Source: Deltaproteobacteria bacterium
GTDB taxonomy: Bacteria; Myxococcota; Myxococcia; Myxococcales; 40CM-4-68-19
DNA: 37,581 bases
Direction: 5' to 3'
NCBI GenBank assembly: GCA_025350525.1
Contig: JANXXR010000364.1
Coordinates: 1 to 37,581, forward strand
This document shows, one piece after another, positions 1,976 through 36,066 of the stretch. Under the pieces are notes generated by a model, which did not search any database, was not told where the DNA came from, and worked only from the letters and a program-made list of their open reading frames with translations. The position numbers and the translations under genes are program-made. The stretch's first letter is position 1. Each line of letters starts with the position of its first letter.

Positions 1976-1977
1976 GA

Positions 1978-3910: not shown

Positions 3911-3949
3911 CTCAGGCGGCCCGCGCGTGCTGTTCCATGACTCTTCCCT

Positions 3950-12964: not shown

Positions 12965-13101
12965 GGGTTTCTCCAGAGGTTGTCCCTCTCCAGAGCACGC
13001 GTCGTGCCACCCGGCAAGCTGCGCGGCGCAGGGAGGACAGGGAGCGGCGCGCAGGATTTGCAGGAGGATGAGCGGCGCAAGGTCTGCACCGGGCGCAAGG
13101 A

Positions 13102-13761: not shown

Positions 13762-13816
13762 CTCGACTGCACACAACAGCAAGCCTCGTGCCCGGCAAAG
13801 TGCCGCCTGGAGCGCT

Positions 13817-14980: not shown

Positions 14981-16390
14981 CTATCCCGGCTCTCCGTGCT
15001 CTGCCAGCAGGTGCTTCTTCAACCGGTAGCGCAGCGTATCGCGCGTCACTCCCAACAGCCGCGCCGCCATCGACTGGTTGCCGTGCGCCTTCTGCATCGC
15101 CTCCAGAATCAGCCGGCGCTCCACCGCGTTCAACTCCATGCTCCCGGGCGGCGGCGCACCGCCGCTGGGCGGCGGGTCCGATCGGGGCGGCGCGAAGTCC
15201 GGCCGGTTCTGGCAAATCGACTCTGGCAGGTGCTCGGGACGGACCTCGTCGATCTCGCCGTAGAGCACCATCGCCCGCTCGATGACGTTGCGCAGCTCGC
15301 GGACGTTGCCCGGCCAGCGATAGGCGGTGAGGAGCTGCAGCGCCTCCGGCGAGACGCCGCGCACCTTGCGCTTGAGCTGCTCGTTGTAGCGGACGATGAA
15401 GGCCACCGCGAGCAGCGCCACGTCCTCAATGTGGTCGCGCAAGGGCGGGATGACGATGCGGACCACATTCAACCGGAAGTAGAGGTCGGGACGGAAGCGC
15501 CCGTCGGCGACGCGCTGCTCGAGGTCGACGTTGGTGGCGGCGACGACGCGCACGTCGGAGTCGAGCTCGACCACGCCGCCGACGCGCCGGAAGGTCCGGT
15601 TCTCGAGCAGGCGCAAGAGCTTCGCCTGGCCGCCGGCGGGCATGTCGCCGATCTCGTCGAGCATCACCGTGCCGCCCGCCGCCGCCTCGAAGAGGCCGAT
15701 CTTCTGCGTCCGCGCGTCGGTAAACGACCCGCGCTCGTGTCCGAACAGCTCGCTCTCCAACAAGTGATCCGGCACCGCCGCGCAGTTGATGCAGAGGAAC
15801 GGCTTCTGCGCCCGCGCGCTCTGGGCGTGGATGCCGCGGGCGACCACCTCCTTGCCGGTCCCGCTCTCGCCCTCGATGAGCACGGTGGCGGCGTCGTTCA
15901 TGGCGATGCGCTCGATCAGCCCGCGGATCTGCTTGATGGCCGGAGACTGGCCCACCAGCGACGGTCCCTCGGCGGCGGCGTCGCCCGCGCCCAGCGGTCC
16001 GGCCAGCAGGCGCCGGGTGGCGGCGGCGCCCAGCGCGCGCTTGACCGCCGCGTCCAGGGTGGTGAGCGGGAAAGGCTTGACGAGGAAGTCGATGGCGCCG
16101 AGCTTCATCCCCTCGACGGCGATGTCCACCGTGCCGTGGGCGGACATCATCACCACCACCAGCTCGGGATGGAGCACCAGCGCGCGCTTGAGCACGTCGA
16201 GTCCGTCGATGCCGGGCAGGCGGACGTCGAGCAGCATCACGTCGGGCGAGCCTTTGCCCAGCTGGGCGAGCGCGTCCTCGCCGGACTCGGCGCTGGTGAC
16301 CTGGTAGTGGCTCCTGGTCAGCCTTTCCTGCAGCGACCAGCGGATCAGCTTCTCGTCGTCCACGACGAGGATGTGCGCGGCGGAAGTCAT
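14981..16390 (-). CDS. sigma54-dependent response regulator (NtrC family: REC + AAA+ + Fis-type HTH)
   Basis: ATG 16390..16388 (MTSAAHILVVDDE). Walker A GESGTGKE, GAFTGA-type loop GHERGSFTDA, WPGNVRELRNVIE, and C-terminal HTH NQSMAARLLGVTRDTLRYRLKK. Overlaps the kinase stop by 4 nt. Confidence 0.92.
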   Translation of the reverse strand: MTSAAHILVVDDEKLIRWSLQERLTRSHYQVTSAESGEDALAQLGKGSPDVMLLDVRLPGIDGLDVLKRALVLHPELVVVMMSAHGTVDIAVEGMKLGAIDFLVKPFPLTTLDAAVKRALGAAATRRLLAGPLGAGDAAAEGPSLVGQSPAIKQIRGLIERIAMNDAATVLIEGESGTGKEVVARGIHAQSARAQKPFLCINCAAVPDHLLESELFGHERGSFTDARTQKIGLFEAAAGGTVMLDEIGDMPAGGQAKLLRLLENRTFRRVGGVVELDSDVRVVAATNVDLEQRVADGRFRPDLYFRLNVVRIVIPPLRDHIEDVALLAVAFIVRYNEQLKRKVRGVSPEALQLLTAYRWPGNVRELRNVIERAMVLYGEIDEVRPEHLPESICQNRPDFAPPRSDPPPSGGAPPPGSMELNAVERRLILEAMQKAHGNQSMAARLLGVTRDTLRYRLKKHLLAEHGEPG

Positions 16391-17871
16391 GCGGCCATCT
16401 CCAGGATCTGCTCGACGGGCAGCGAGAGGGAGAAGAGCGTGCCTCCCTCGGGCGGGCAGTCGAACTCGATCTGCCCGCGGTGCTCGGCCACGATGCGCGC
16501 CGAGGTGGCGAGCCCGAGCCCGTTGCCGTCCTTGCGGGTGGTGAAGAAAGGCGTGAAGACGTGGGCGCGGACTTCGAGGGGAATTCCCGGCCCGGTGTCG
16601 CCCACCTGCACGACGACGAATTCGTCGCGGACGAAGCTGGTGACGGTGAGCGTCCCGCCCTTGCCATTCATCGCCTGGAGCGCGTTGAGGCAGAGGTTGA
16701 GGAGCACCTGCTCGATCTGCCCCGGGTCGCCGTGCAGCGCCGGCAGCGACGGGTCGGGCACGAACTTGATCTCCACCGGCGTCTCGCTGTGCTGCTGCCC
16801 CACCAGGAAGAGCACGGCCTCGATGACCGGCGTCAGCTCCATCCGTTGCATGCGCGCGCGCGGCGGCCGGGCGAAGTTGAGCAGGCCCTCCATGGTGCGG
16901 GTCAGCCGCTGCACTTGATGTTGCATCTCGGCGACGACTTCGGCCTTGCTGCCGGTCCCGGCCAGATCTTCGGCGAGCAGCTCGAGCGCGCCGGAGAGGC
17001 CGGCCAGCGGGTTCTTGATCTCGTGGGCGAGGCCGGTGGCCATCTCGCCGACCGCGGCGAAGCGGTCCGCGCGCACCATCCGCTCGGCGTAGACCAGCTC
17101 CAGCTCGCGCGTGCTGCGCTTGAGCGCCGCGAAGGTCGCGTCGAATCCGCGGGCCGCCACGCCCAGCTCGTCGGGCCGCCCCTCGTCGGCGACGATGCTG
17201 GCGTCGCCTTCTTCGGCCAGCCGCATCGCCCGCACCAGGCGCTGCAGCGGATTGACCACTTCCCGCCCCAGCAGCCAATAGGCGCTCGCCAGCAGGATGA
17301 TGAGCGCCGGCACCGCCGCCACCACCAGCTCGCCGGCGAGCATCTTCTTGGCGGTCTGGACCGGATCGCGCGAGAAGCGCGCATCGATCCATCCGTTGAC
17401 CTTGGACACCGAGCCGTGACAGCCGGCGCAGCCCGGGGCGTTCTGGATGGGCCGGAGCACCGCGAACTGGTCCGAGTTGACCGGCCGCACCTCCGTCTTT
17501 TCCCCGCCGGGGAGCGTGGGCCAGGGGCGCGCATCGATCAGCTTTGGATTCGAAGAAGAAATCACCGTTCCGTCGGGGCGCATCAGGCTGACCGAGATCA
17601 CCTCCTGGCGGTGCTCGTCGACCATGGTGAGGATGACCGGCAGCGCGTTGCGCCCGGAGTGGAGCATCTCCGAGCTCAGCCCTTCGGCGGCGGCGTCGAC
17701 GAACATCTCGGCGCGGTGCCGCACGTTCTTCTCCAGGTCGCGGCCCAGCATCTCCACCGCGGCCAACACCATCAGTCCGAGCGTGACGGTGAAGAGCAGG
17801 GCCGAGGGCAAGAAGACGCGCGCCCGAAGGCTCGCGTTGAGCTTCCTGAAGCCGGGCAGCCGCTGCGGCAC
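16387..17871 (-). CDS. sensor histidine kinase with heme-c (CXXCH) periplasmic sensor domain, HAMP, HisKA, HATPase
   Basis: Two TM helices flank a domain of about 140 aa containing NAPGCAGCHGS. H-box GLAHEIKNPLAG, plus N/G boxes (LNLCLNALQAM, DTGPGI, GNGLGL). Start proposed at GTG 17871 (VPQRLPGFRK) behind GGGAGGAGG; GTG 17877 is an alternative. The track ORF extends to 18093, but that part has no support. Confidence 0.88.
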   Translation of the reverse strand: MPQRLPGFRKLNASLRARVFLPSALLFTVTLGLMVLAAVEMLGRDLEKNVRHRAEMFVDAAAEGLSSEMLHSGRNALPVILTMVDEHRQEVISVSLMRPDGTVISSSNPKLIDARPWPTLPGGEKTEVRPVNSDQFAVLRPIQNAPGCAGCHGSVSKVNGWIDARFSRDPVQTAKKMLAGELVVAAVPALIILLASAYWLLGREVVNPLQRLVRAMRLAEEGDASIVADEGRPDELGVAARGFDATFAALKRSTRELELVYAERMVRADRFAAVGEMATGLAHEIKNPLAGLSGALELLAEDLAGTGSKAEVVAEMQHQVQRLTRTMEGLLNFARPPRARMQRMELTPVIEAVLFLVGQQHSETPVEIKFVPDPSLPALHGDPGQIEQVLLNLCLNALQAMNGKGGTLTVTSFVRDEFVVVQVGDTGPGIPLEVRAHVFTPFFTTRKDGNGLGLATSARIVAEHRGQIEFDCPPEGGTLFSLSLPVEQILEMAA

Positions 17872-17894
17872 GCGCACCTCCTCCCTGCCTGCTG

Positions 17895-17910
17895 AGCAAG
17901 GTCCGGACCA
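17895..17910 (-). promoter_or_regulatory. candidate sigma54 (-24/-12) promoter for the kinase/regulator operon
   Basis: The minus strand reads TGGTCCGGACCTTGCT, with GG-N10-GC spacing and TTGCT at -12. It is only about 25 nt from the proposed GTG start, so the leader would be very short. Confidence 0.3.
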
Positions 17911-17960
17911 AGCTGCCCAAATGGCGTCTCCGGCGCGCGCGCTGCTAGCGGTTACAAAAC

Positions 17961-17996
17961 TTGCGCGGCGCAGAGAGCGACGCGCAATCGCTGCGC
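17961..17996. promoter_or_regulatory. nested palindromes, candidate enhancer (UAS) for the NtrC-type activator
   Basis: TTGCGCG(17961..17967)-N13-CGCGCAA(17981..17987) and GCGCAG(17968..17973)-N17-CTGCGC(17991..17996). They sit between two divergent sigma54-like promoters. Confidence 0.3.
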
Positions 17997-18038
17997 GTCT
18001 ACCCAGGTGACCGCTCTGGAGTCTCGGCAGTCGCTGGG

Positions 18039-18054
18039 TGGCACCCCTCTTGCC
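18039..18054 (+). promoter_or_regulatory. sigma54 (-24/-12) promoter upstream of the first NHL gene
   Basis: TGGCACCCCTCTTGCC has exact TGGCAC, 5 nt, then TTGC (consensus TGGCACG-N4-TTGCW). It ends 23 nt before ATG 18077, so the leader is short. Confidence 0.55.
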
Positions 18055-18076
18055 TGTGCAGCAAAGAGGAAATCGA

Positions 18077-19003
18077 ATGAAGACCCGCGTCAATCAAGTC
18101 ATCCTTACTCTTCTGGCCGCCTCGGCCTTTGCGCATCCGGCGTCCGCGGAAGTGATGCGGAGCAACTTCACCTACCGGCTCTCGGATTCGAACGGCGCCT
18201 TGCCGATCTCCTGGGCGACGATGAACTGGGACTCGCGCGCGGGCGAGCTCTACGTCATCGACTCGAGCAGCGGCACCGTCGATGTCTTCAACGACAACGG
18301 CATGGAGGTCTTCGCCTTCGGCAACGACTCGGGCCTGGGCACCGTCGTCGGCGCGGTGCCGATCGAGGGCGGCGACATTGTCGTGCTGGCGGTCAAGACA
18401 AAGGAGTGGTCGTTGGTGCGCTGCAACTTCCGAGGTGAGCCCATCGCGAGGATCGCGGTCAGCGGCGTGCCGGGGGGCTTCAGCCCGAGCGCGCTGCGGA
18501 CCGCGAAGGGAAAACTCTATCTCGCAGATGGGAACAACCTCATGATCGTAGAGATCGGGATCTCCGGCGCGGTCTCCGCGTCCTGGGATCTGGCGAAGCT
18601 CCTCAAGCTCGACTTGAAGAAGCGTCCCGGCAACGACCTGCGCGGCTTCAACGTCTCGCCGGACGGCAACATCCTCGGGACCATCTCGGGACTCTTCCTC
18701 GCCTTCGTCCTCACGCCCGACGGCCAGCTGCATCCGTTTGGCACGCGCGGCGGCGCGCCCGGCAAGTTCAACATCGTCGCCGGCATCGCCGCCGACGAAA
18801 CCGGCCACCTCTACGTGACCGACGTGCTGCGCGCGGTGGTGATCGTCTTCGACAAAGAGTTCAAGTTCATCGGCGAGTTCGGCTACCGCGGCTACGACGA
18901 CGACAACCTCGTCGCCCCCAACGAGGTCGCGGTGAGCAACGGCCGCGTCTTCGTCAGCCAGAGCGTCGGCGGCGTCAAGGTGTTTGAAGTCGTCTTCCAA
19001 TAG
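18077..19003 (+). CDS. NHL-repeat beta-propeller protein, exported
   Basis: ATG 18077 follows AGAGGA. Signal peptide MKTRVNQVILTLLAASAFAHPASA. Repeated blades of the type GxLYVxDxxxxxVxVF (ELYVIDSSSGTVDVF, KLYLADGNNLMIVE, HLYVTDVLRAVVIVF, RVFVSQSVGGVKVF). Confidence 0.8.
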   Translation: MKTRVNQVILTLLAASAFAHPASAEVMRSNFTYRLSDSNGALPISWATMNWDSRAGELYVIDSSSGTVDVFNDNGMEVFAFGNDSGLGTVVGAVPIEGGDIVVLAVKTKEWSLVRCNFRGEPIARIAVSGVPGGFSPSALRTAKGKLYLADGNNLMIVEIGISGAVSASWDLAKLLKLDLKKRPGNDLRGFNVSPDGNILGTISGLFLAFVLTPDGQLHPFGTRGGAPGKFNIVAGIAADETGHLYVTDVLRAVVIVFDKEFKFIGEFGYRGYDDDNLVAPNEVAVSNGRVFVSQSVGGVKVFEVVFQ

Positions 19004-19114
19004 TCCAATCAGCGGGCATTTCGGTCTGGGTGCAAACCCCCAACACTGGGTGTGGTGGCTCACGCCGCCCGAGCCGCAAAACCGAAAAACCCACTGGAAT
19101 CAACGCTCCCTGCT

Positions 19115-19130
19115 TGGCGCTTCGCTTGCT
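19115..19130 (+). promoter_or_regulatory. sigma54 (-24/-12) promoter upstream of the hexaheme cytochrome gene
   Basis: TGGCGCTTCGCTTGCT has GG-N10-GC spacing, 5/6 at -24 and TTGCT at -12. It lies 59 nt upstream of ATG 19189 (SD AAAGGAG). Confidence 0.6.
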
Positions 19131-19188
19131 TAGTGCAGCGAGCAGAAGTCCCGGCTTTCGAAGCTTCAAGCAGTGAAAGGAGCACCAG

Positions 19189-20640
19189 ATGAAATCCCTC
19201 AAGTTTGGAACCATCCTCGTCGCCTTCGCAATGGCGACCTTCGCGTTCGCCCCAGAGGCGTTCGCCTTCCATGACGGCGGCGTCGCGTACTGCGACGGCT
19301 GCCACACGATGCACAACTCCTCCGGCGGCAAGGCGGTTGCAATCAAGGGCGCGAGCACGCAGTTCCAGGGCGTGGCCGACTTTCTCTTGCAAGGCTCCGA
19401 CCCCAGCTCGACCTGTCTCAACTGCCACGCCAGCGCGACGGGCGGCGGCTATCACATCATGACGTACCCCCTCGCGCTTACGGGCTTCCCTGCTAACACG
19501 ACGCCGGGCGGCGATTTCGCATGGCTCGGCATCGCTTCAGCCCCGGGCACCACGACCAGCTACGGCGCTCCCTTTAATAGCAAGGGCGAGCGGCATGGCC
19601 ACAACGTGGTCGCGAAAGACTACGGTATGATCGCTGACGCGACTCTCCTGACGGCTCCGGGCGGCACGTACACTGCCGCGACGCTCTCTTGCGTCAGCTG
19701 CCACGACCCACACAGCCGCGCCCGCGTCGTCGATGCGAACGGGACCATCGCCTACAACAAGCTCGGCGCGAAGACGCTGCCCATCGCCGGCTCAGGCTCC
19801 TACGGTGCGACCGCAACGGCGACCGAAGCCGTGGGCGTGTACCGCCTTCTTGGCGGCAAGAACTACGTCAACGAGGGAGCCGGCTACACGTTCGATCAAG
19901 CCGATCCGCCGGTGGCCGTCGCTCCTTCGAACTTCAACCGCACCGAGGCGGTCACTGACATGCGCGTCGCCTACGGCGCGGGCATGAGCGAGTGGTGCTC
20001 CAACTGCCACACCGCGCTCCACAACCCCAACGTCATGGCGGCCAACACCAAGCTCATCCACCCGTCGGGCGCCGGGGCGAAGCTGGCCACGAGCGCGACG
20101 GTCTGGGGCGCCCCCACGACTGAGGCGGGCATCTACAACGCCTACAAGGCCTCGGGCGACCTGACCAACACTGTGGCCACTTCGTACACCTCGTTGGTTC
20201 CGTACGAGGAGGGCACCACCGTGATCGCCACGCTGGCCGGAGACGCGTCCATGATTGGCGGCAGCGCCGCAGTTCCCGCCGTCGGTCCTGCCGGTTGCGT
20301 TCCTAACGGGACTACTTGCATTGCCGCCATTCCCGCCGTTCTGGGCCTCGCGAAGACAACCGGCCCGAGCACTGGCACCGAGAACGTCATGTGCCTGACC
20401 TGCCACCGCGCGCACGCGGGCGGCTTCGACTCCGCTACCCGCTGGCAGAACCGCGGCGAGTTCCTCACCATCGCCGGCGCCTGGCCGGGCAGCGATGCGC
20501 CGACCCTCGAGGGCAAGGGCGGGCAGTACTCGAACGGCTATACCCAGGCGCAGTACACGGCAGCCATGGGCGGTCGGTCGGCGACGAACTACGCCACCTT
20601 CCAGCGCTCGCTGTGCAACAAGTGCCACGCAAAGGACTAA
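19189..20640 (+). CDS. hexaheme c-type cytochrome, exported
   Basis: Signal peptide MKSLKFGTILVAFAMATFAFAPEAFA. Six CXXCH motifs (CDGCH, CLNCH, CVSCH, CSNCH, CLTCH, CNKCH) spread over 483 aa, with long Ala/Thr/Gly-rich heme-free stretches. Confidence 0.88.
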   Translation: MKSLKFGTILVAFAMATFAFAPEAFAFHDGGVAYCDGCHTMHNSSGGKAVAIKGASTQFQGVADFLLQGSDPSSTCLNCHASATGGGYHIMTYPLALTGFPANTTPGGDFAWLGIASAPGTTTSYGAPFNSKGERHGHNVVAKDYGMIADATLLTAPGGTYTAATLSCVSCHDPHSRARVVDANGTIAYNKLGAKTLPIAGSGSYGATATATEAVGVYRLLGGKNYVNEGAGYTFDQADPPVAVAPSNFNRTEAVTDMRVAYGAGMSEWCSNCHTALHNPNVMAANTKLIHPSGAGAKLATSATVWGAPTTEAGIYNAYKASGDLTNTVATSYTSLVPYEEGTTVIATLAGDASMIGGSAAVPAVGPAGCVPNGTTCIAAIPAVLGLAKTTGPSTGTENVMCLTCHRAHAGGFDSATRWQNRGEFLTIAGAWPGSDAPTLEGKGGQYSNGYTQAQYTAAMGGRSATNYATFQRSLCNKCHAKD

Positions 20641-20662
20641 CTGACGTCCAGCTGGCCTGAAC

Positions 20663-20697
20663 GAGGAGGGTCGCGAAAGCGGCCCTCCTCTTCATTT
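20663..20697 (+). terminator. intrinsic terminator after the hexaheme cytochrome gene
   Basis: GAGGAGGGTCGC-gaaa-GCGGCCCTCCTC (12-bp stem with one G-U pair) followed by TTCATTT. It starts 23 nt after the TAA stop. Confidence 0.7.
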
Positions 20698-20821
20698 GTG
20701 GAGCACCCGGGCGGGGCATGGCCCGTGCAGTACCAGTGCAGTAGACGGTGCGAACCGAGCGCCATACCGCGGCTGCGCGCCCCGGCGAGCGCAATTGCTG
20801 CGCTGCCGCGCAAGGATTGTC

Positions 20822-22201: not shown

Positions 22202-22208
22202 GGCGTGG

Positions 22209-24371: not shown

Positions 24372-24378
24372 GGACGCC

Positions 24379-24924
24379 ATGAAGAGATACCTTCTGCTTC
24401 TCCTGCTCGCCGCCTGCGCTTCCGGGCGCAGGTACCAGGACAAGGGCATGGACTTCGCCGCCGTCCGGACGGTGGCGGTGCTGCCCTTCCAGAACCTGAC
24501 CACCGCCAACACGGCGCACGAGCGCGTGCGCGACGTCTTCTCCAACATGCTGCTCGCGACCGGCGCCCTCTACGTGCTGCCGGCCGGCGAGGTCGCGCGC
24601 GGAATCAACCGCGGCGGGGTGGCGCTGCCGAGCACGCCGTCGAAGGAAGAGTTCATCGCCATCGGCAAGATGCTCGCCGCCGACGCGGTCATCACCGGCG
24701 TCCTCAAGGAGTACGGAGAAGTCCGATCCGGGAACAGCACCGCCAACTCGATCTCGCTCAGCGTGCAGATGGTCGAGGCCGGGACCGGCAAGATCGTCTG
24801 GTCCGCCTCGACCACCAAGGGCGGGATCGGCTTCTTCGACCGCCTCCTCGGAGGCGGCGGCGACCCGATGAACAAGGTGACCGAGGATGCGGTCCATGAC
24901 CTGCTCAACCAGCTCTTTCATTGA
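24379..24924 (+). CDS. small lipoprotein, TolB-N/LpoB/DUF799-like module
   Basis: Lipobox LLLLLAAC, then AVRTVAVLPFQNLTTANTAHERVRDVFSNMLLATG. SD GAGGA lies upstream of the ATG, 7 nt after the barrel gene's stop. Confidence 0.7.
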   Translation: MKRYLLLLLLAACASGRRYQDKGMDFAAVRTVAVLPFQNLTTANTAHERVRDVFSNMLLATGALYVLPAGEVARGINRGGVALPSTPSKEEFIAIGKMLAADAVITGVLKEYGEVRSGNSTANSISLSVQMVEAGTGKIVWSASTTKGGIGFFDRLLGGGGDPMNKVTEDAVHDLLNQLFH

Positions 24925-26086: not shown

Positions 26087-26159
26087 CTCGCCCCGCAAAA
26101 CCTGCGCCCGTTCGCCGTCGCCACCGGGCGGCACCCCTTGCGCAGGGCGCACGGCTTGC

Positions 26160-26175
26160 TGGTGCGCTGCTTGCA
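26160..26175 (+). promoter_or_regulatory. sigma54 (-24/-12) promoter upstream of the chaperone/cytochrome operon
   Basis: TGGTGCGCTGCTTGCA has TGG at -24, GG-N10-GC spacing and TTGCA at -12. It lies 47 nt upstream of ATG 26222 (SD AAGGAG). Confidence 0.5.
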
Positions 26176-26221
26176 GAACCCCTGACGGACAGAGGCACGC
26201 ATCCGCTCAAGGAGTGTCCCG

Positions 26222-27919: not shown

Positions 27920-27932
27920 GCAAGGACCTCCC

Positions 27933-29864
27933 ATGCGCGCCCCAGCCATCGGGATTCTCTGCGCGGTCCTGGCGCTGGCTTTCTCGGCGCGCGCCGAGCA
28001 GTTCGCGCGCAAGGAGTGTCTCGACTGCCACGCCAAGTTCGCCGACAAGCTCCACGACCTGAAAAACCTGCACGCGCCGGTGAAGTCGCAGGAGTGCGAG
28101 GAGTGCCACCTGCGCCACGGCACTGTGCCCAAGCTCCTTCTCAAGGAGAGCGGCAACGGCCTCTGCCTGACCTGCCACAAGAAGGAGAGCCTCGGCCTCG
28201 AGAAGAAGGTCGTGCACCAGGTCCTCAAGACGGGCAAGTGCATCGACTGCCACGACGCACACGGATCGAACGCGAAGGTCCTGCTCAAGCGCGAGGGCAA
28301 GCTGGAGTGCTACTCCTGCCACAAGCCGGAGCCGTTCGAGAAGAAGTTCGTCCATAAAGTCGTCGCGGACGGCGGCTGCATGGCCTGCCACACCGCGCAC
28401 GCCTCCGACCAGCAGGGCCTGCTCATCGCGGCAGAGGGACCGCTCTGCCTGAAATGCCACGCGGCGGCGGCGGCGCCGTTCCAGAAGGCCCACGGCGGCA
28501 TGCCGGTCGCGAGCAAGGCCTGCACCACCTGCCACGATCCGCACTCGTCGGACAAGGCGGGCCTGCTCAAGGCTTCGTTGCACAAGCCGCTGGTCGCCGG
28601 GGAGTGCGCCACCTGCCACGCGGCCTCAGCGGGGAAGCCGTTCGCGGTCAAGGCCGACGGCAGCAAGCTCTGCTACGGCTGCCACCTCGCCGACGGGATC
28701 GCCGACAAGGATCAGATCGCGCACGCGCCGGTGAAGAAGGGCGACTGCCTCGCCTGCCACGACCCGCACACTTCTTCCAACAAGGGCCTGCTCAAGGCCG
28801 CGGGCAACCAGCTTTGCTTCTCCTGCCACAAGGACAAGGCGCTGCCGGTCACTTCGAAGCACGCGACCGTCGCGCAGGGCTGCACCACCTGCCATCAGCC
28901 GCACGCCGCCACCAACAAGGCGCTGCTCGATGTCTCCATCGAAGCGCTCTGCGTGAAGTGCCACGTCGCCTCGACCGCCGATCAGCTCAAGGACAAGGTC
29001 GTCCATGCGCCCTTCAGGGGCGGCAAGTGCACGAGCTGCCACAACGCCCACGGCTCCAACGTCCCTGCCATCCTCAAGGAGTCGGAGGACAAGCTTTGCT
29101 ACTCCTGCCACAAGGACGCGGAGACCCGCTTCGTTAAGTCGCACACGCACAAGCCGGTGCAGAACGGGCAGTGCTCCGGCTGCCACCAGGGCCATTCGGC
29201 CGACGTGCCCAACCTGCTCAAGGCCGAAGGCGCAGCGCTTTGCGCCACCTGCCACGCAGATCTGATGAAGAAGGAGCTGGGCGGCTCGCAGCACCAGCCG
29301 TTCGCCGACGGCCAGTGCCTCACCTGCCACGATGCGCACGGCTCGAACATCCCCGGCATGACCGTGGCGGCGCAGGGCAACCTCTGCGTGCGCTGCCACG
29401 CCGTGGCGATGAAGGAGGCCGAGGGCGCCAAGAGCGTGCACGCGCCCTTCGCCAAGGCCGACTGCACCAGCTGCCACAGCCCGCACAAGTCGGGCCTGGA
29501 GATGTTGCAGCTCACCAAGGGGCCCGAGGCCTGCCTCATCTGCCACAAGGCGCTCAAGGAGAAGATCTCCGCCGGCAAGACGCACGGCCCCGCCGGGCAG
29601 GACTGCCTGCAGTGCCACCGGCCTCACGCCTCGGCCAACGCCAAGCTCGCCACGCAGGCGACGCCGCAGATCTGCAACGGGTGCCACAAGCAGCCCGACC
29701 CGAAGCTGTCGGCGGCGCACCTCGGAATCGATCTGACCAGGAGCAACTGCACCAGCTGCCACAACCCGCACGCCGGTCCGGACGCGCGGCTGATCAACAG
29801 CGTCGCGCACGAGCCATTCGAGAAGGGCAAGTGCGACGCCTGCCACACCGGAGGTGCGCTGTGA
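27933..29864 (+). CDS. 26-heme c-type cytochrome (tandem doubled-CXXCH modules), exported
   Basis: ATG 27933 (MRAPAIGILCAVLALAFSARA). I count 26 CXXCH motifs in 643 aa, arranged as about 13 repeats of LCxxCH...(V/A)HxP(V/F)xxGxCxxCHxxH(G/A)S. Confidence 0.9.
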   Translation: MRAPAIGILCAVLALAFSARAEQFARKECLDCHAKFADKLHDLKNLHAPVKSQECEECHLRHGTVPKLLLKESGNGLCLTCHKKESLGLEKKVVHQVLKTGKCIDCHDAHGSNAKVLLKREGKLECYSCHKPEPFEKKFVHKVVADGGCMACHTAHASDQQGLLIAAEGPLCLKCHAAAAAPFQKAHGGMPVASKACTTCHDPHSSDKAGLLKASLHKPLVAGECATCHAASAGKPFAVKADGSKLCYGCHLADGIADKDQIAHAPVKKGDCLACHDPHTSSNKGLLKAAGNQLCFSCHKDKALPVTSKHATVAQGCTTCHQPHAATNKALLDVSIEALCVKCHVASTADQLKDKVVHAPFRGGKCTSCHNAHGSNVPAILKESEDKLCYSCHKDAETRFVKSHTHKPVQNGQCSGCHQGHSADVPNLLKAEGAALCATCHADLMKKELGGSQHQPFADGQCLTCHDAHGSNIPGMTVAAQGNLCVRCHAVAMKEAEGAKSVHAPFAKADCTSCHSPHKSGLEMLQLTKGPEACLICHKALKEKISAGKTHGPAGQDCLQCHRPHASANAKLATQATPQICNGCHKQPDPKLSAAHLGIDLTRSNCTSCHNPHAGPDARLINSVAHEPFEKGKCDACHTGGAL

Positions 29865-31120
29865 TCGCGCTCTTGCTGGCCGCGCTGACCGCCGCCGCCG
29901 CGCCGCCGTCCGACGCCGTCCAGGCGCAGCGCTTCAAGCTCAAGCCCGGCGCCGAGGGCAAGCTCTGCCTCGATTGTCACGCGCCTTTCCAGGCCAAGCT
30001 CAAGCAGGCCTTCGTGCACACGCCGGTGAAGAGCAGCAACTGCACCGGCTGCCACAATCCGCACGCCAGCGAGCACGGCAAGCTGCTGGGCGCGGACCAG
30101 GACAAGCTCTGCGCCACCTGTCACCAGGACCTCTTGCCCGCCAAGGCGAAGAGCGTGCACCGGCCGTTCGGCGAGGGAAACTGCACCGGCTGCCACGACC
30201 CGCACGCCTCGGACAACAAGTTCGAGCTGCTCAAGCCCGGCGCGCAAGTGTGCGCGGGCTGCCACACAGCGATCGCCACCGCGACGGGGCAGGCCAAGCA
30301 CAAGCACTTCGAGCAGGGGAGGGTAGCCTGCACCACCTGCCACGAGCCGCATGCATCGGCCAAGGGCGAGCACCTGCTCAAGGGAGAAGATCCGGCGCTC
30401 TGCCTCGGCTGCCACAAGACGAACGTGGCCTTCTCCAAGGCGCATATGAGCTATCCGGTGGAGAAGGCGCGTTGCACGACCTGCCACGACCCGCACGGCT
30501 CGAGCAAGCCCGCCATGCTCTACGATACTTTGCATAAGCCGGTGGCGAGCCGGCAATGCGTCCAATGCCACGCCTTGCCCTCGTCGGCGCGGCCCTTCGA
30601 GACCAAGGCGGTGGGGACGGCGCTCTGCACCAGCTGCCACGCCGCCGAGATCACGCGAATGCTCGCCTTGCCGCAGGTGCATTGGGCCATCGCCGACGAG
30701 AAGGCGTGCCTCAATTGCCACAGCGCGCACGGCTCGCGGCAGCGCGGCCTCATCAAGGGGAACATGAAGGCGGTCTGCGCCACCTGCCATTCCGACACCA
30801 TTGCGCGGCAGGAGCGGTCGGTGACCAAGCACAAGCCGGTCGAGACAGGTGACTGCACCGCCTGCCACAGTCCGCACTCGTCGGAGACGGCGCTCTTGAT
30901 GAAGAAGGCCGATACCACCGTGATGTGCCGCACCTGTCACGACTGGCAGAAGCACGCCACGCATCCTTTGGGTGCGACGCTCAAAGACCCGCGCAACCGG
31001 AACCTGGTCCTCGATTGCCTCAGCTGCCACCGCGCCCACGGCACTGAGTTCAAGCATATGAATCCCTATCCGACGACTACGGAGCTCTGCACCAAATGCC
31101 ACGAGTCATTCAAACGATGA
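29861..31120 (+). CDS. 16-heme c-type cytochrome (tandem doubled-CXXCH modules), exported
   Basis: GTG 29861 overlaps the previous stop (GTGA), with GGAGG 6 nt upstream. An alternative GTG at 29831 would give a charged n-region (MRRLPHRRCAVIALLL...). I count 16 CXXCH motifs. The 29171..29860 part of the track ORF is out-of-frame reading of the previous gene. Confidence 0.88.
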   Translation: MIALLLAALTAAAAPPSDAVQAQRFKLKPGAEGKLCLDCHAPFQAKLKQAFVHTPVKSSNCTGCHNPHASEHGKLLGADQDKLCATCHQDLLPAKAKSVHRPFGEGNCTGCHDPHASDNKFELLKPGAQVCAGCHTAIATATGQAKHKHFEQGRVACTTCHEPHASAKGEHLLKGEDPALCLGCHKTNVAFSKAHMSYPVEKARCTTCHDPHGSSKPAMLYDTLHKPVASRQCVQCHALPSSARPFETKAVGTALCTSCHAAEITRMLALPQVHWAIADEKACLNCHSAHGSRQRGLIKGNMKAVCATCHSDTIARQERSVTKHKPVETGDCTACHSPHSSETALLMKKADTTVMCRTCHDWQKHATHPLGATLKDPRNRNLVLDCLSCHRAHGTEFKHMNPYPTTTELCTKCHESFKR

Positions 31121-31998
31121 GGCTTGTGCTGCTGCTCTGCGCGGTGTCTTTGGCCCTTCGCGCGGAGGTGCTCCCGCTCTTGCCTGCGGGCTCGGCGTAT
31201 GCGGACGCGAGCGGCGCCGCGCTCAAGGCGCCCGAGGGCGTTGCCTGCGCCGGTAAGGGCTACGTGGTCGGGGCGGACACTGGCAACGGCCGCCTGGTCA
31301 CCTGGACCTTCAAGGATGGGGCGCTCACCGGCGGCGCTCCTATCCGTTTCCCGGAGCTGGGCGCGCCGGCGCGCGTACAGATCGACAGCAAGGGCAATGT
31401 CTTCTCGCTCGACCAGCGGACGCGGCGCATCGTGCGCGTCGGCGAGCAAGGTACCTTTGCCGGGTACGTACAGCCCAAGGGCGTGCCGGCGGCGAGCGGG
31501 TTCTTTCCTGTCGCCTTCAAGCTGGACTCCGCCGACAACTTCTACCTGCTCGACATCGCCTCGGCGCGGTTGGTGGTGCTGGACCCTGCGGGCGCGTTCG
31601 TGCGGCAGCTTTTGCAGCCGGCGGGCGCGACGCTGAACGACGTCGCGGTCGATGCGCGCGGGACGGTGTTGGCGGTGGACGGCGCGCACGCGGTGGTCTA
31701 CGCGGCGAAGGTCGGCGCCGAGTCGTTGACGCCGCTCTCGAAGGGCCTGCGGGAGTATGCGAGCTTTCCCAGCTACCTATCCATCAATGCGCAAGGGCTC
31801 ATCGTGCTGGTTGATAATCACGGCAATGGGATTTTGGTGCTCGGACCCGACGGAACCTTCCTCGGCCGGCGGCTGAGCATCGGCTGGGGCGAAGGGCTGG
31901 TCTATTACCCGGGGCAGATCTGCATCGATCTGCAGGGCGATATCTTCGTGGCCGACCGGGGGAACAATCGACTGCAGGCGTTCGCGCCGGCGAAGTGA
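31117..31998 (+). CDS. NHL-repeat beta-propeller protein, exported
   Basis: ATG 31117 overlaps the cytochrome stop (ATGA). Signal peptide MRLVLLLCAVSLALRA. Blades include GYVVGADTGNGRLVTW, NVFSLDQRTRRIVRV, NFYLLDIASARLVVL, LIVLVDNHGNGILVL, DIFVADRGNNRLQAF. Confidence 0.82.
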   Translation: MRLVLLLCAVSLALRAEVLPLLPAGSAYADASGAALKAPEGVACAGKGYVVGADTGNGRLVTWTFKDGALTGGAPIRFPELGAPARVQIDSKGNVFSLDQRTRRIVRVGEQGTFAGYVQPKGVPAASGFFPVAFKLDSADNFYLLDIASARLVVLDPAGAFVRQLLQPAGATLNDVAVDARGTVLAVDGAHAVVYAAKVGAESLTPLSKGLREYASFPSYLSINAQGLIVLVDNHGNGILVLGPDGTFLGRRLSIGWGEGLVYYPGQICIDLQGDIFVADRGNNRLQAFAPAK

Positions 31999-32129
31999 TG
32001 CTTCCCCGTTTCGATTCGTTCTCCCCGTCCGCGCGAATTCGCAGGTTTGCGCCACCAATCCTGCTCGCCGTGCTCACGCTTGCGCTTCATGGTGTGGGGC
32101 TGGCCGGCGGATTCGTCTGAGACGACGAC

Positions 32130-33623
32130 TTGATCGTGGTGAAGAACCCCGCCACCCGCGACCTGTCACGCCTGGGAGAAGTGCTCCTCTCGCCCGACTG
32201 GATGCCGCCTTACTACCGGCCCCTCAATCGGGCCTCTTATCTGATTGATTATCACCTCTGGGGGATGAATCCGCTCGGCTTTCATGCGGTGAACCTGGTT
32301 CTGGCTATCGGCTGCGTCCTCGCGATGTATGCGCTGGCCCGACGGGTGTTTGACTGCCGGGCTCCGGCATTCGTGGCCGCGGCGCTGCTGGCCGTCCATC
32401 CCATCAGCGTCGAGGCGGTCGCGTTCGTGACGGCCCGCAACAACCTCTTCGCGCTTCTCTTCGCGCTGCTGCCTCTGACCGCCTTCATCGACGCGTCCCG
32501 GCGCGATTCGTTGCGCCTGGCCTGGCTCTCGGGCTTCGCGTTTTTTCTCGGGCTCCTCTCCAAGGAGCCGGCCTTGATGGTCCTGCCGCTCATGGCGGCG
32601 CTGCTGGTGCTTCCGTCGCTGCGACCGCGGCGCCCTGATCGGCGATCGCTCCTGCTGCTCGCCCCGCACGTCGCGGCGGCGTCGGTCTGGCTCGCGCTCC
32701 GCGCCATTGCGATGTCGCACGCGGCCGCCACGCCGGAACTTGCCGCGACCCCCCTGCTCCAGCGCCTGGCGCTCAACTATTCCGTGATTCCACGCTACCT
32801 GCTGCTCATCCTCTTTCCGCGCGACCTCTCCAACTTTCACGCCGCGCCGCCGCCCGGCCTCCTCTCCAACGGATGGCTACCGCTGGCCTGGCTGACGATC
32901 GCTGCCGGACTCATCTGGCTCGTGCGCCATCGGTCCGTCCCGATCACCGTCGGGCTCCTCTGGTTCGCCGCCAACCTGTTCCCGATCGCCCAGATCGTCC
33001 CCCTGCCGACCAGCACTCCCTTCGCCGAGCGGTACATCTTCTTCTCGTGCGTGGGGCTCTTTCCGATCGCCGCCGAGCTTTTCCGGCGCGGCCAGGCGAG
33101 CTCGCACCGGCTGCTGACCCTGGGTGTCACGGCGGCCGCTCTCCTCGCGCTCGGCGCGCGCACGTTTGCGCGCACGCTGGACTGGCACGACGACCTCGCC
33201 TTGACCCGGAGCGCGGTGGCGGTGGAGCCCCGCTCGGCTCGAGCCCATTTCAACCTGGGAGTCGTGCTGAAGGATCGCGACGATCTGCCCGGCGCGGTGC
33301 GCGAGTGGGAGACCGCGCTGACCCTGGAGCCGTCCGACGCCGAAAGCCATGCCCAGCTCGGCACCGCGGCGGCCGTCCGCGGCGACTTCGACGCCGCAGA
33401 GCACCATTACCGGGCCGCAGTCGCCTCTGACCCCATGCTGTCGCTGGCTTGGTTCAACCTCGGGCGGCTGCTCGACAAGACCGGGCGCTTTCCGGAGGCG
33501 ATCGATTGCTATTCGACCTACCTTGAGAGCGCCCTTCCGGACTCGGACCCCCACGTGGCCGTGGCCCGCGAACGGCTCTCGGTGCTTGGCGCGGCATCAG
33601 TTGCTCGCGGCGGCGTGGAGTGA
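32130..33623 (+). CDS. TMTC/PMT-like GT-C membrane protein with C-terminal TPR repeats; open part only, the gene appears interrupted by an in-frame TGA at 32118..32120
   Basis: Multi-TM N-terminal half and a TPR C-terminus (AHFNLGVVLKDRDDLPGAVREWETALTLEP, AWFNLGRLLDKTGRFPEAIDCY). A 40-codon in-frame segment from ATG 31998 (overlapping the NHL stop, TGATG) supplies TM1 and the GGFV part of the FVxDD motif, then hits TGA. Confidence 0.7.
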   Translation: MIVVKNPATRDLSRLGEVLLSPDWMPPYYRPLNRASYLIDYHLWGMNPLGFHAVNLVLAIGCVLAMYALARRVFDCRAPAFVAAALLAVHPISVEAVAFVTARNNLFALLFALLPLTAFIDASRRDSLRLAWLSGFAFFLGLLSKEPALMVLPLMAALLVLPSLRPRRPDRRSLLLLAPHVAAASVWLALRAIAMSHAAATPELAATPLLQRLALNYSVIPRYLLLILFPRDLSNFHAAPPPGLLSNGWLPLAWLTIAAGLIWLVRHRSVPITVGLLWFAANLFPIAQIVPLPTSTPFAERYIFFSCVGLFPIAAELFRRGQASSHRLLTLGVTAAALLALGARTFARTLDWHDDLALTRSAVAVEPRSARAHFNLGVVLKDRDDLPGAVREWETALTLEPSDAESHAQLGTAAAVRGDFDAAEHHYRAAVASDPMLSLAWFNLGRLLDKTGRFPEAIDCYSTYLESALPDSDPHVAVARERLSVLGAASVARGGVE

Positions 33624-35413
33624 TCAGGCTTTATGCTACGAGCCCATCGATGCTGACGCAGGCCGGGCGCCGGGGCGCAGTCCTCGTGATGGCGGCAGCG
33701 ATTGCGTATATTCCGGCATTGCGGGGCGGGTTCGTCTTCGATGATCACATGATTATCGAGGGCGGCCGCCTTCTTCGCGGTCCGCTCTGGCGAGTCTGGC
33801 TGACGACCACTACGGCCGACTACTGGCCGCTGACGCGGACGTGCTTCTGGGTGCAATGGCGCGTGTGGGGATTGCATGCGTGGGGTTACCACGCTGTCAA
33901 CATCCTGCTGCACATCGCCGCCGCGATCCTCGTTTGGCGCGTGCTCCGGCGCCTTCATATGCCGGGCGCATGGATCGCCGGGCTTCTCTTCGCGGTTCAT
34001 CCCGCCACGGTCGAATCGGTCGCCTGGATTTCAGAGACCAAGAACACGCTCTCTGGCGTACTTTTCTTGGGGTCGATCCTGGCCTGGATCCGGTTCGACG
34101 AGGAAGGTGACCGGCGTTCGTACGCAATCTCGTTGTCGCTCTTTGCGCTCGCCGCACTCGCCAAGGCCTCCGTCGTCATGTTGCCGCTCGTTCTCCTTGG
34201 TGTCGCGCTCGCCCAACGCGGCCGGCTCAGGCGGAGGGACTACGAGACCACCGCCCCCTTCTTCGCCGTGGCGCTGGTTGCCGGCTTCGTCAACCTCTGG
34301 TTTCAGCGTCACAACGCGATGGCGGGTGGCTGGGCAGTGTCTCGTGGCGTTGGGCAGCGGGTCGGCGAATCGGCCTGGGCGCTGACGACGTATCTGCGGA
34401 ATGCATTCATCCCTGTCCGTCTGGGATTCGTCCACGAGCCGTGGACGGTCGGACCGGACTCCCCATTGCTTTTCTATGCGCCGCTCCTGGCGATGGCGGC
34501 GGCGCTGGCGCTCCTGGTCACGCTGCGCGCGCGTTCCCGGCTCGCTCGCGCCGCGCTGTACGCGACCGGCTATCCCGTGCTGATGTTGCTTCCGGTGCTG
34601 GGTGTTCTGGATATCGCCTATTTCAGCGTCGGGCCGGTTTCGAACCACCTCCAGTATCTGGCGCTGATCGGGCCGGTTGCGCTGCTGGGGACTGGGATGG
34701 CCTGGATCACGGAGCGCGAACTCGTCACCGCGACTGTCGCAGTGGCGGTGGCGGTCGCGCTTGGAGTGGTGACCTTCCAGCGCGCCACGGAATTCGAGAA
34801 TGACCTGACGCTCTGGACCGGTGCCGTCCGCGCTGCGCCCGGCAGCGCCTATGCGCATAACCAGCTCGCCAGTATTGATCAGGAGCGTGGCAATCGGGCG
34901 GGGGCCCTCGACGAACTGCTCGCGACTGCGCGCCTCTCCAGCGCCCCCGCCGACCACCACCGCTACATGGGCTTGTGGTTTCTCTTCTCCGACCGGCCGA
35001 GCGAAGCGATCGATGAGGCGCGGGAAGTCCTGCGCACCGCTCGGGATCCAGAGGCCCGCCGCGACGCAGCGTGGGTGCTGACGCAGACCGGGCAACATGC
35101 GGAGACGTTGCCCGTCTTCCGTTCGCTTGTCAGCGAGGCGCCGAACGGCTCGGACTACACGTATTGGCTCGGCGCAGTGCTCGCGCGCGAGGAAAAGATT
35201 CCGGAGGCGGCTGAGGTGCTCCGAGGCTTTTGCCGCGTGCGCCCAGGCGACCCGCAGATGGAGGAAGCCTTGGCGATCCTGCTCGTGCGCTTGGGATTCG
35301 TTGACGAGGCTCCTCAGCACGCCGGAGCCGCGGCCGGCGTGACGGCTCGAGATCCTCGTGCGGCGGCGCAACTGGCGGCTTGGATCCAGAAGGCGGGGAT
35401 GCCGCCCTTGTAG
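33620..35413 (+). CDS. TMTC/PMT-like GT-C membrane protein with C-terminal TPR repeats (intact paralogue)
   Basis: GTG 33620 overlaps the previous stop (GTGA). N-terminus ...AIAYIPALRGGFVFDDHMII carries the FVFDD loop-1 motif. About 10 TM segments, then TPR-like helices. Confidence 0.8.
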   Translation: MIRLYATSPSMLTQAGRRGAVLVMAAAIAYIPALRGGFVFDDHMIIEGGRLLRGPLWRVWLTTTTADYWPLTRTCFWVQWRVWGLHAWGYHAVNILLHIAAAILVWRVLRRLHMPGAWIAGLLFAVHPATVESVAWISETKNTLSGVLFLGSILAWIRFDEEGDRRSYAISLSLFALAALAKASVVMLPLVLLGVALAQRGRLRRRDYETTAPFFAVALVAGFVNLWFQRHNAMAGGWAVSRGVGQRVGESAWALTTYLRNAFIPVRLGFVHEPWTVGPDSPLLFYAPLLAMAAALALLVTLRARSRLARAALYATGYPVLMLLPVLGVLDIAYFSVGPVSNHLQYLALIGPVALLGTGMAWITERELVTATVAVAVAVALGVVTFQRATEFENDLTLWTGAVRAAPGSAYAHNQLASIDQERGNRAGALDELLATARLSSAPADHHRYMGLWFLFSDRPSEAIDEAREVLRTARDPEARRDAAWVLTQTGQHAETLPVFRSLVSEAPNGSDYTYWLGAVLAREEKIPEAAEVLRGFCRVRPGDPQMEEALAILLVRLGFVDEAPQHAGAAAGVTARDPRAAAQLAAWIQKAGMPPL

Positions 35414-36027: not shown

Positions 36028-36038
36028 CTTGATTGGGG

Positions 36039-36066
36039 ATTGTAATGCCTCGCAGGCGATTGTCAA
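36039..36066 (-). promoter_or_regulatory. near-consensus sigma70 promoter for the transposase gene
   Basis: The minus strand reads TTGACA-N16-TACAAT, and the -10 box ends 11 nt before ATG 36027. This implies a near-leaderless mRNA. The AT-rich boxes stand out in this GC-rich DNA. Confidence 0.4.

Follow-up and report, generated by a model that had tools for sequence, protein, structure and literature searches.

The closest described counterpart of the genes treated here is the omcS-osc locus of Geobacter sulfurreducens (GSU2507-GSU2493). In this locus GSU2507 is a Cache/HAMP kinase of 621 amino acids (aa), GSU2506 a sigma54 regulator and GSU2505 a hypothetical protein (PMC11077965, PMC10599522); GSU2504 is omcS, GSU2503 omcT, GSU2501 oscC, GSU2495 oscI with 26 haems and GSU2494 oscJ (PMC13194489; bioRxiv 10.1101/2025.11.06.686851). 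GSU2495 is described as '~70 kDa/26 heme' (bioRxiv 10.1101/2025.11.06.686851), and the expression of GSU2505, GSU2506, GSU2507 and GSU2499 changes together in Geobacter transcriptomes (PMC10599522). A preprint connects the eight genes GSU2500-GSU2493 with the maturation and secretion of OmcS and finds an OmcS-like hexaheme cytochrome wherever this block occurs (bioRxiv 10.1101/2025.11.06.686851). Shen et al. (2025, Cell Chem Biol 32:239), as cited in PMC13194489, tied the osc block to the folding, secretion and morphology of the OmcS nanowire, the roles proposed according to that citation being folding for OscH, secretion for OscE, OscF and OscG, and morphology for OscD. Here, a contig of 37,581 nucleotides (nt) from a deltaproteobacterial assembly (JANXXR010000364.1; its whole length is called the window below, G+C ~69%) was analysed, and its region 14981-35413 is read, with a probability of about 80%, as an omcS/osc-type cytochrome-nanowire locus in an organism that is uncultured and probably belongs to the myxobacteria. 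The reading is based on homology, on conserved gene order, on conserved promoters and a conserved terminator, and on conserved haem ligands.

Two minus-strand regulatory genes lie head-to-head with 12 plus-strand genes, as read from the open reading frame (ORF) listing and the translations. The individual genes are as follows, with the Osc equivalents being putative assignments.

14981-16390, minus strand: NtrC-family sigma54 activator (REC, Sigma54_activat, AAA_lid and HTH_8 in Pfam)
16387-17859, minus strand: sensor histidine kinase with one periplasmic CXXCH (HAMP, HisKA and HATPase in Pfam)
18077-19003, plus strand: NHL propeller 1 (NHL1), secreted (Pfam NHL)
19189-20640, plus strand: OmcS-family hexaheme c-type cytochrome, presumed filament subunit (match to PDB 6EF8/6NEF)
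20822-22201, plus strand: YVTN/YncE beta-propeller lipoprotein (Pfam YNCE, NCBIfam beta_rpt_yvtn), OscD (GSU2500) equivalent
22209-24371, plus strand: 720-aa outer-membrane beta-barrel (AlphaFold2 model), OscE (GSU2499) equivalent
24379-24924, plus strand: LpoB/GNA1162-like lipoprotein 1 (Pfam), OscF (GSU2498) equivalent
24887-26086, plus strand: lipoprotein 2, with two tandem LpoB-like domains (weak Pfam LpoB match), OscG (GSU2497) equivalent
26222-27919, plus strand: periplasmic parvulin-type peptidyl-prolyl isomerase (PPIase) with a SurA-like N-terminus (Rotamase_2, Rotamase and SurA_N in Pfam), OscH (GSU2496) equivalent
27933-29864, plus strand: 26-haem periplasmic cytochrome, 13 paired-CXXCH units in MtrA/DmsE-like repeats, OscI (GSU2495) equivalent
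29861-31120, plus strand: 16-haem periplasmic cytochrome, 8 paired-CXXCH units, OscJ (GSU2494) equivalent
31117-31998, plus strand: NHL propeller 2 (NHL2; Pfam NHL), OscK (GSU2493) equivalent
31998-33623, plus strand: GT-C (PMT_2) + TPR membrane protein 1 (GTC1), interrupted by an in-frame TGA
33620-35413, plus strand: GT-C (PMT_2) + TPR membrane protein 2 (GTC2; PMT_2 and TPR match)

This layout agrees in most respects with an original prediction made from the letters of the window and its ORFs. All 14 genes were recovered at the predicted coordinates by ORF listing and translation, and so was the tight or overlapping spacing among the plus-strand genes, with junctions of 7 nt, 7 nt, an overlap, 13 nt, GTGA, ATGA, TGATG and GTGA. 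Wider gaps were found 5′ (185 nt) and 3′ (181 nt) of the hexaheme gene and 5′ of the PPIase gene (135 nt). The predicted total of 48 CXXCH sites was obtained from counts in the true ORFs of the three cytochromes (6 + 26 + 16), none of which carries a lipobox when read from the sequence, as had been stated; lipoboxes were read in the YVTN protein (LLAAC) and in the two small lipoproteins (LAAC and LAGC). Profile searches with Pfam and NCBIfam gave support to the NHL, YVTN/YncE, LpoB/GNA1162-like and Rotamase/SurA_N calls.

Judged by its sequence, the hexaheme protein is an OmcS-family cytochrome and so belongs to the family of the Geobacter nanowire subunit. In a phmmer search against PDB, its residues 27-355 and 394-483 matched the OmcS chain 6EF8_A (also 6NEF) with E = 1.1e-94, and by tblastn it is 45% identical to Geobacter OmcS. 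The six CXXCH motifs are conserved, and in an alignment of 14 homologues the motif histidines as well as H28, H42, H138, H175, H278, H291 and H409 are invariant; these conserved histidines also match in the alignment with 6EF8. The stretch CHTMHN aligns with OmcS C12-H13-T-M-H16-N, H42 being the equivalent of His16, and the fifth motif C402xxC405H406 aligns with OmcS C328xxC331H332. In the OmcS filament, His16 is the inter-subunit ligand that binds haem 5 of the neighbouring subunit. Signal-peptide cleavage is predicted at AFA|FHDGG and yields the mature N-terminus FH.GGVA, the same as in the PDB chain. A 35-residue insert containing two cysteines (residues 357-391, window positions 20257-20361, IGGSAAVPAVGPAGCVPNGTTCIAAIPAVLGLAKT) was seen in this contig alone: none of the 13 OmcS-family homologues in the alignment has it, not even the nearest ones at 66-69% identity. 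More than 5,400 proteins fall within E ≤ 1e-10, which makes the OmcS family a very large one.

Eighty OmcS-family loci were drawn from representative genomes by an OmcS-family alignment search and were searched with every window protein; the loci were centred on the hexaheme genes and cut 10 kb downstream, so that NHL2 and the GT-C genes are under-counted. At least three of the seven core genes were present in 63 of the 80 loci, and at least six in 45, mostly in colinear arrangement. The recurring order was NHL, hexaheme, YVTN, barrel, lipoprotein 1, lipoprotein 2, PPIase, 26-haem, 16-haem and then NHL2. It is conserved in Myxococcota, Geobacterales, Nitrospirota, Acidobacteriota, Bdellovibrionota and others, and the order of the eight genes is equal in loci of Geobacter, Geomonas, Anaeromyxobacter and Nitrospirota. 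The gene set thus co-occurs outside this genome with its order kept across phyla, which bears out the earlier claim of one conserved functional unit for extracellular or envelope electron transfer. Many OmcS/osc loci came from Nitrospirota (metagenome-assembled genomes of Nitrospira included), Acidobacteriota and Bdellovibrionota. These three phyla are generally not considered metal reducers.

The Geobacter OmcS gene in this collection (P0241, named 'c-type cytochrome OmcS') is 96% identical to the 6EF8 chain, and its locus (L081) begins with a PMT_2+TPR gene, a Cache kinase (621 aa), a sigma54 response regulator with PAS, a 315-aa gene, OmcS and OmcT. OmcT is followed by a 1017-aa spermine-synthase-like protein, an OmcS-like hexaheme, a YncE propeller, a 718-aa protein without Pfam match and an LpoB/GNA1162-like lipoprotein. 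The window proteins are 29-53% identical to the proteins of this Geobacter locus, which ends at the OscF-like gene; equivalents of OscG-K, 36-57% identical, were found in Geobacter-genus and Geomonas loci (L004, L015, L026, L012, L021, L057). By order and size, the window genes at 20822-31998 appear to correspond to OscD through OscK. The original prediction had put forward an undescribed electron conduit whose parts list matched no known system. The comparison with characterised Geobacter clusters gave a match to omcS/osc instead: the parts are an OmcS-family subunit with the GSU2500-GSU2493 osc block, and the Geobacter omcS locus has the same neighbours. The locus is a further example of a known system, the omcS/osc cluster family already reported to be widespread, and not an undescribed electron conduit.

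Several points weigh against this assignment. In a distance tree of hexahaem proteins (neighbour-joining, n = 120), which is rough and carries no support values, the window protein falls into a clade with L001, Anaeromyxobacter, Geobacter sp. AOG1 and Geobacter sp. H2geo; this clade stands apart from the OmcS/OmcT and GSU2501 groups, and orthology to OmcS proper was thus not obtained. The window contains a single hexaheme gene, with the OmcT and OscC (GSU2501) paralogues absent, and the GSU2502-like protein of 1017 aa (OscB) had no tblastn match in it; many non-Geobacter loci are also without OscB and OscC, so that these two are probably not defining parts. G. sulfurreducens OmcS alone has been demonstrated to polymerise, the functions of the paralogues being unknown (bioRxiv 10.1101/2025.11.06.686851), and the physiological need for OmcS filaments is disputed (PMC11077965). 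Deletion of the GSU2507 kinase was reported to alter omcB and pilA expression, in an omcS-deleted background (PMC11077965). The Osc roles are taken from two secondary citations, the letter-to-gene mapping of OscD-H and OscK being deduced from gene numbers, and in the window GTC1 is interrupted by a stop codon.

It is conceivable, if improbable, that the hexaheme is a non-polymerising paralogue like GSU2501, OmcT and OmcJ, and that the block has a different redox function in the envelope, such as electron uptake or the oxidation of Fe(II) in Nitrospirota and other non-metal-reducers. Such a role would be in keeping with the placement of the hexaheme outside the OmcS/OmcT clade, with the commonness of the cluster in Nitrospirota and Acidobacteriota and with the unique 35-aa insert. 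However, all haem motifs and the seven extra histidines are invariant, the inter-subunit ligand included, and the gene is served by a promoter of its own and followed by a conserved terminator, whereas GSU2501-type genes overlap the next gene. The preprint authors also consider that a cluster-linked hexaheme may form an uncharacterised nanowire (bioRxiv 10.1101/2025.11.06.686851). An omcS/osc-type nanowire locus is the reading followed below.

Among the companion genes, NHL1 is 37% identical to the 315-aa gene directly 5′ of Geobacter omcS (the GSU2505 homologue) and was found in 49 of the 80 loci. NHL2 stands directly 3′ of the 16-haem gene in every locus extending that far. An origin of NHL1 and NHL2 by duplication was considered and dropped, their pairwise similarity being undetectable. 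The YVTN propeller is 42% identical to the Geobacter gene at the same position and matched PDB 1L0Q with E = 3e-33. Lipoprotein 1, 53% identical to its Geobacter counterpart, is the most conserved core gene (61 of 80 loci); lipoprotein 2, present in 59, resembles it in its C-terminal half (27% identity, E = 7e-13). The PPIase was present in 53 loci, and the PDB sequence search returned no solved relative of it. Matches of the large cytochromes to the DmsE-family model TIGR03508 scored 302 and 179 bits, and the 26-haem protein matched MtrA (6R2Q_A) with E = 3e-19, so both are MtrA/DmsE-like periplasmic cytochromes, though with 26 and 16 haems rather than 10. Exactly 26 CXXCH motifs were counted in 31 of 35 homologues of the 26-haem protein, and 16 in the 16-haem homologues of the Geobacter and Geomonas loci.

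The AlphaFold2 model of the 720-aa barrel (predicted local distance difference test score, pLDDT, 87) has ~28-30 strands and a beta-sandwich insert at about residues 245-415. The barrel itself matched nothing in Pfam or NCBIfam, and the discoidin-like family F5_F8_type_C_2 was matched by six of 23 barrel homologues. It is 31% identical to the Geobacter 718-aa gene. A PDB sequence search gave no match to MtrB or to any PDB chain, and a fold search returned generic large barrels only, with MtrB at the top (TM-score 0.38-0.41); being generic, these matches neither support nor exclude an MtrB-like role. Neither an MtrB/OmbB-type porin nor an outer-surface lipoprotein cytochrome was found by PDB sequence search, fold search and lipobox reading.

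These proteins raise the question of a new type of porin-cytochrome conduit, in which the barrel would sheathe the 26- and/or the 16-haem cytochrome and the hexaheme would be a surface terminal reductase, with no filament needed. We regard this as quite unlikely. The resemblance of the 26-haem protein to MtrA and the DmsE family, the first place of MtrB among the fold matches and the constant company of barrel and multihaem genes speak for it, but the barrel lacks sequence similarity to MtrB or any PDB chain, in the fold search it resembles large barrels only generically, at low TM-scores, and its neighbours are lipoproteins and a propeller rather than cytochromes. Moreover, no lipoprotein is found among the cytochromes, the hexaheme retains the equivalent of His16, the subunit bridge in the OmcS filament, and the same Geobacter block has been connected with the maturation and secretion of OmcS (PMC13194489; bioRxiv 10.1101/2025.11.06.686851). 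A conduit would also be compatible with a filament, as the barrel could mount the filament and let OscI and OscJ reach it. The porin-cytochrome idea of the original prediction therefore survives as a complement to the filament and not as a stand-alone conduit: with a 26-haem protein that is MtrA/DmsE-like and with MtrB as the best, though poor, fold match, the barrel may in addition give the periplasmic wires access to the base of the filament. In the omcS/osc reading, the propellers, the chaperone, the lipoproteins and the barrel, which are odd for a porin-cytochrome conduit, are by analogy with the Osc proteins parts of filament assembly and secretion.

The 3′ end of the cluster was less uniform. 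Both GT-C+TPR genes of the original prediction are present, but only the second is intact. GTC1 shares 43-45% identity with the PMT_2+TPR gene that precedes the kinase gene at the omcS locus of Geobacter, and has an in-frame TGA at 32118-32120 (codon 41, GGFV*DDD within …GLAGGFV*DDDLIV…) where its paralogues read GGFVFDD. A restart at the TTG at 32130 would lose TM1 (the first transmembrane segment) and the acidic motif. The stop could be a TGG to TGA mutation, leaving a pseudogene, or an assembly error. Selenocysteine or other programmed recoding at this TGA was rejected as unsupported, the paralogues having F or W there and a single TGG to TGA change explaining the stop. GTC2 has a 55% identical orthologue directly after NHL2 in L083 and none after NHL2 in L085 and L086, so that it is best taken as an accessory gene. 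In the closest relatives, NHL2 is succeeded not by GT-C genes but by a gene for a small cytochrome c7 (PpcA-like), as seen at 13747-14088 in L085, whose barrel is 77% identical; the 3′ end of the locus is thus variable.

The two divergent regulatory genes encode what appears to be a sigma54 two-component system, with an activator made up of REC, AAA+ and HTH parts and predicted −24/−12 promoters 5′ of the putative target genes. The activator scored 437 bits against the NCBIfam model ntrC and, across its AAA+ and DNA-binding parts, shares 45% identity with the regulator of the GSU2506 type from Geobacter. Its sigma54-contact loop reads GSFTDA, a variant of GAFTGA, and its competence for sigma54 is putative. 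In the N-terminal half of the kinase, two hydrophobic segments (TM1 and TM2) flank ~150 residues ending in CAGCH. A periplasmic CXXCH was found at the equivalent position in 11 of the 16 kinases adjoining OmcS clusters, among two sensor types and in several lineages. As the kinase is haem-containing, it is probably redox- or ligand-sensing, and the label 'heme-sensing' given to it earlier was replaced: it carries a c-type haem site, rather than sensing haem.

The putative promoters, candidate activator sites and terminator of the window are as follows.

17979-17999, no strand assigned: inverted repeat of 21 nt, GACGCGCA-ATCGC-TGCGCGTC, with the core GCGCA-N5-TGCGC, candidate activator-binding site
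18039-18053, plus strand: sigma54 −24/−12 promoter TGGCACCCCTCTTGC, a perfect TGGCAC-N5-TTGC with 0 mismatches, 24 nt 5′ of the NHL1 start codon
19115-19129, plus strand: sigma54-type promoter TGGCGCTTCGCTTGC before the hexaheme gene, 1 mismatch
20663-20690, plus strand: intrinsic-terminator-like hairpin directly after the hexaheme gene, a 12-bp stem with 9 GC pairs, then TTCATTTGTG
20714-20728, plus strand: weak candidate site of sigma54 type, GGGCATGGCCCGTGC, 3 mismatches, located 3′ of the terminator and 5′ of the YVTN gene
26093-26107: palindrome CCGCAAAACCTGCGC with a GCGCA-N5-TGCGC-type core, upstream of the sigma54 site of the PPIase gene
26160-26174, plus strand: sigma54-type site TGGTGCGCTGCTTGC before the PPIase gene, 2 mismatches
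14727-14741, 13779-13793 and 12995-13009, minus strand: three sigma54-type sites with 1 mismatch each, 5′ of a HemC paralogue, a 219-aa and a 277-aa gene

Sigma54-type promoters had been predicted in front of three transcription units, and this was upheld with 0, 1 and 2 mismatches, the third site being conserved in three related loci; the terminator hairpin at 20663-20690 and a fourth conserved sigma54-like site at 20714-20728 go beyond that prediction. When sites were counted with GG and GC fixed and at most two mismatches, 32 of 48 loci had one upstream of the NHL1 homologue, compared with one of 45 upstream of the 26-haem gene, the internal control. At the promoter of the hexaheme gene, L085 and L086 retain the TGGC...TTGC positions although their flanks have diverged. 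The PPIase-gene site, TGGTGC-N5-TTGCA, is conserved in L083, L085 and L086 within diverged surroundings, the site at 20714-20728 is a conserved block in the same three loci, and all three minus-strand sites are conserved at the same positions in L083. Such conservation of the −24/−12 sites makes it very probable that sigma54 and a two-component system control the unit, as had been claimed. By the same criteria, no sigma54 site was found 5′ of the GSU2505-like gene or of omcS in the Geobacter locus L081, and this control may thus not be universal. A scan for sigma70 promoters found none in the cluster, and Rfam scans of the whole window and of 17800-20900 returned no element and hence no riboswitch (e.g. 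GEMM/cGAMP) in the leaders.

The inverted repeat at 17979-17999 lies ~45 nt upstream of the first sigma54 site, and L083 has an exact copy of its core at the corresponding position. Cores resembling it were found at 20789-20803 and 26093-26107, the latter being exact in L083 and L085. These intergenic GCGCA-N5-TGCGC palindromes are candidate activator-binding sites; those that precede the NHL1 and PPIase promoters, at a distance of 45-55 nt, are conserved in L083 and L085. Hairpins comparable to the one after the hexaheme gene (z < −2) followed 31 of 47 cluster-linked hexaheme genes, and were missing where the hexaheme gene abuts the next gene, as in GSU2501-type genes. A promoter of its own and a terminator behind it are the arrangement expected for the gene of an abundant structural subunit.

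The two-component system might be a mere neighbour of the cluster, with the sigma54-like sites served by another activator or non-functional. Kinase and regulator both occur within 10 kb in just 14 of the 80 loci, the window-wide number of sites with at most one mismatch (5) is not significantly above the shuffle mean of 3, and the Geobacter kinase has a Cache sensor, its deletion having been reported to affect omcB and pilA. Nevertheless, all five of these sites are directly 5′ of genes flanking the regulator and all are conserved in related loci; the excess of sites before NHL1 homologues over the control regions and the conserved palindromes ahead of two promoters point the same way, and Geobacter omcS is likewise adjoined by a kinase and a sigma54 regulator. 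Chance vicinity is for these reasons considered an unlikely explanation, and control of the nanowire locus by its adjacent regulator is retained as the more probable reading.

The minus-strand sites also connect the regulator with genes on its other side:

12131-14741, minus strand: three genes with sigma54-type sites, encoding a divergent HemC paralogue, a 219-aa secreted protein and a 277-aa lipoprotein

The HemC paralogue reached 135 bits against an NCBIfam cutoff of 164 and is without the N-terminal ~55 profile positions; the 277-aa lipoprotein has two repeated domains. The positions of the sites suggest that the regulon extends past 14981-35413, and this extension may couple haem synthesis to the 48-haem load. 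A wider proposal is made here only tentatively: a periplasmic-redox switch dedicated to nanowire production, formed by the c-haem kinase and the activator and acting via the GCGCA-N5-TGCGC sites on ~7 sigma54 promoters, would co-regulate the subunit, the secretion machinery, the 26- and 16-haem wires, two secreted proteins and a haem-raising HemC paralogue, and the nanowire would be distinct from G. sulfurreducens OmcS. In the literature that could be reached, no description was found of the layout with haem kinase, ~7 promoters and HemC or of a distinct nanowire of this clade.

The mechanism that we infer for the locus, covering polymerisation of the hexaheme, the individual Osc-like roles, the signal of the kinase and the direction of electron flow, may be depicted as follows. 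The membrane kinase with its covalent periplasmic c-haem would report the redox or ligand state of the periplasm to the NtrC-family activator, which would turn on several sigma54 promoters. From the first two promoters the NHL propeller and the OmcS-family hexaheme subunit would be expressed, and the terminator 3′ of the subunit gene would keep the subunit in excess over the machinery. The subunit would be exported via Sec and receive its six haems in the periplasm, where the OscH-like PPIase may assist its folding. It would then be passed to an outer-membrane assembly of the ~28-strand barrel and the two LpoB-like lipoproteins (OscE-, OscF- and OscG-like), the form of the filament being affected by the OscD-like YVTN propeller lipoprotein. 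Extracellular polymerisation through inter-subunit His-haem ligation would yield a conductive filament, and the 26- and 16-haem MtrA-like rods (OscI- and OscJ-like) probably conduct electrons across the periplasm to its base. The GT-C/TPR proteins would be accessory, possibly glycosylating envelope or filament proteins.

Outside the cluster, an IS200-like Y1 transposase (35422-36066, minus strand; Pfam Y1_Tnp, E = 4e-8) lies immediately 3′ of the last GT-C gene; it delimits the cluster on this side and may be a mobile-element boundary. On the other side, the minus strand of 93-8768 encodes, as read from translations only, a bc-type pair of cytochrome b and Rieske proteins accompanied by a monohaem ORF (1981-2376), as well as a universal stress protein and a hydrogenase-maturation set (HypB-, HypE-, HypD- and HypF-like). 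It is followed by a 1054-aa lipoprotein with Cys-rich repeats (8965-12129, minus strand), which has no informative family match; homologues of this lipoprotein with 36-48% identity were found near OmcS clusters of Anaeromyxobacter and other loci (L005, L006, L030, L032, L078, L023).

The OmcS/osc machinery has been studied almost only in G. sulfurreducens, and is met here in a compact single-subunit form in an uncultured high-GC lineage, probably of myxobacteria. Its minimal set, without OscB, OmcT and OscC, helps to define the essential parts and is useful for heterologous production, and the regulatory layout gives rise to hypotheses on how nanowire production is switched on and how the ratio of subunit to machinery is set.

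Among the other known systems, the sensor has possible counterparts in periplasmic c-haem sensor domains of Geobacter signalling proteins, for example the chemoreceptors GSU0582 and GSU0935. These likewise have a single periplasmic CXXCH, and the sensor types of the OmcS clusters may be unrelated to those PAS-like domains. The porin-cytochrome conduits (MtrCAB, PccF/OmbB-OmaB-OmcB, ExtABCD) have in common with the locus a large barrel, MtrA/DmsE-like periplasmic cytochromes and the purpose of extracellular electron transfer. The locus differs from them by having no lipoprotein outer-surface cytochrome, by a larger barrel with a discoidin-like insert and without sequence similarity to MtrB, by its extra propellers, LpoB-like lipoproteins and PPIase, and by an extracellular cytochrome from a filament-forming family. 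The OmcE nanowire clusters of Desulfuromonadia combine a subunit, two multihaem cytochromes, beta-propeller lipoproteins and a large beta-barrel, often followed by glycosyltransferases (family 39 included) and TPR proteins, and a porin-like mounting hypothesis was proposed (bioRxiv 10.1101/2025.10.22.684050). The logic of the parts is alike, but OmcE is tetrahaem and unrelated in sequence to the hexaheme described here, and the accessory genes are likened by description. Compared with the G. sulfurreducens omcS-osc locus, one hexaheme gene is found here instead of three, without OmcT and the GSU2501 paralogue, and OscB (the 1017-aa spermine-synthase-like GSU2502) is absent; the hexaheme is ~45% identical to OmcS and belongs to another clade. 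The kinase there has a dCache sensor and the regulator a PAS domain, whereas a CXXCH haem sensor and no PAS are found here, the two-component genes are co-directional there and divergent here, and of the two loci only this one has a pair of GT-C/TPR genes at its 3′ end, the first of them interrupted. Both loci have an OmcS-family hexaheme gene that follows an NHL gene of the GSU2505 kind, an identical order of the eight genes farther downstream, an adjacent kinase and sigma54 response regulator, and a PMT_2+TPR gene nearby.

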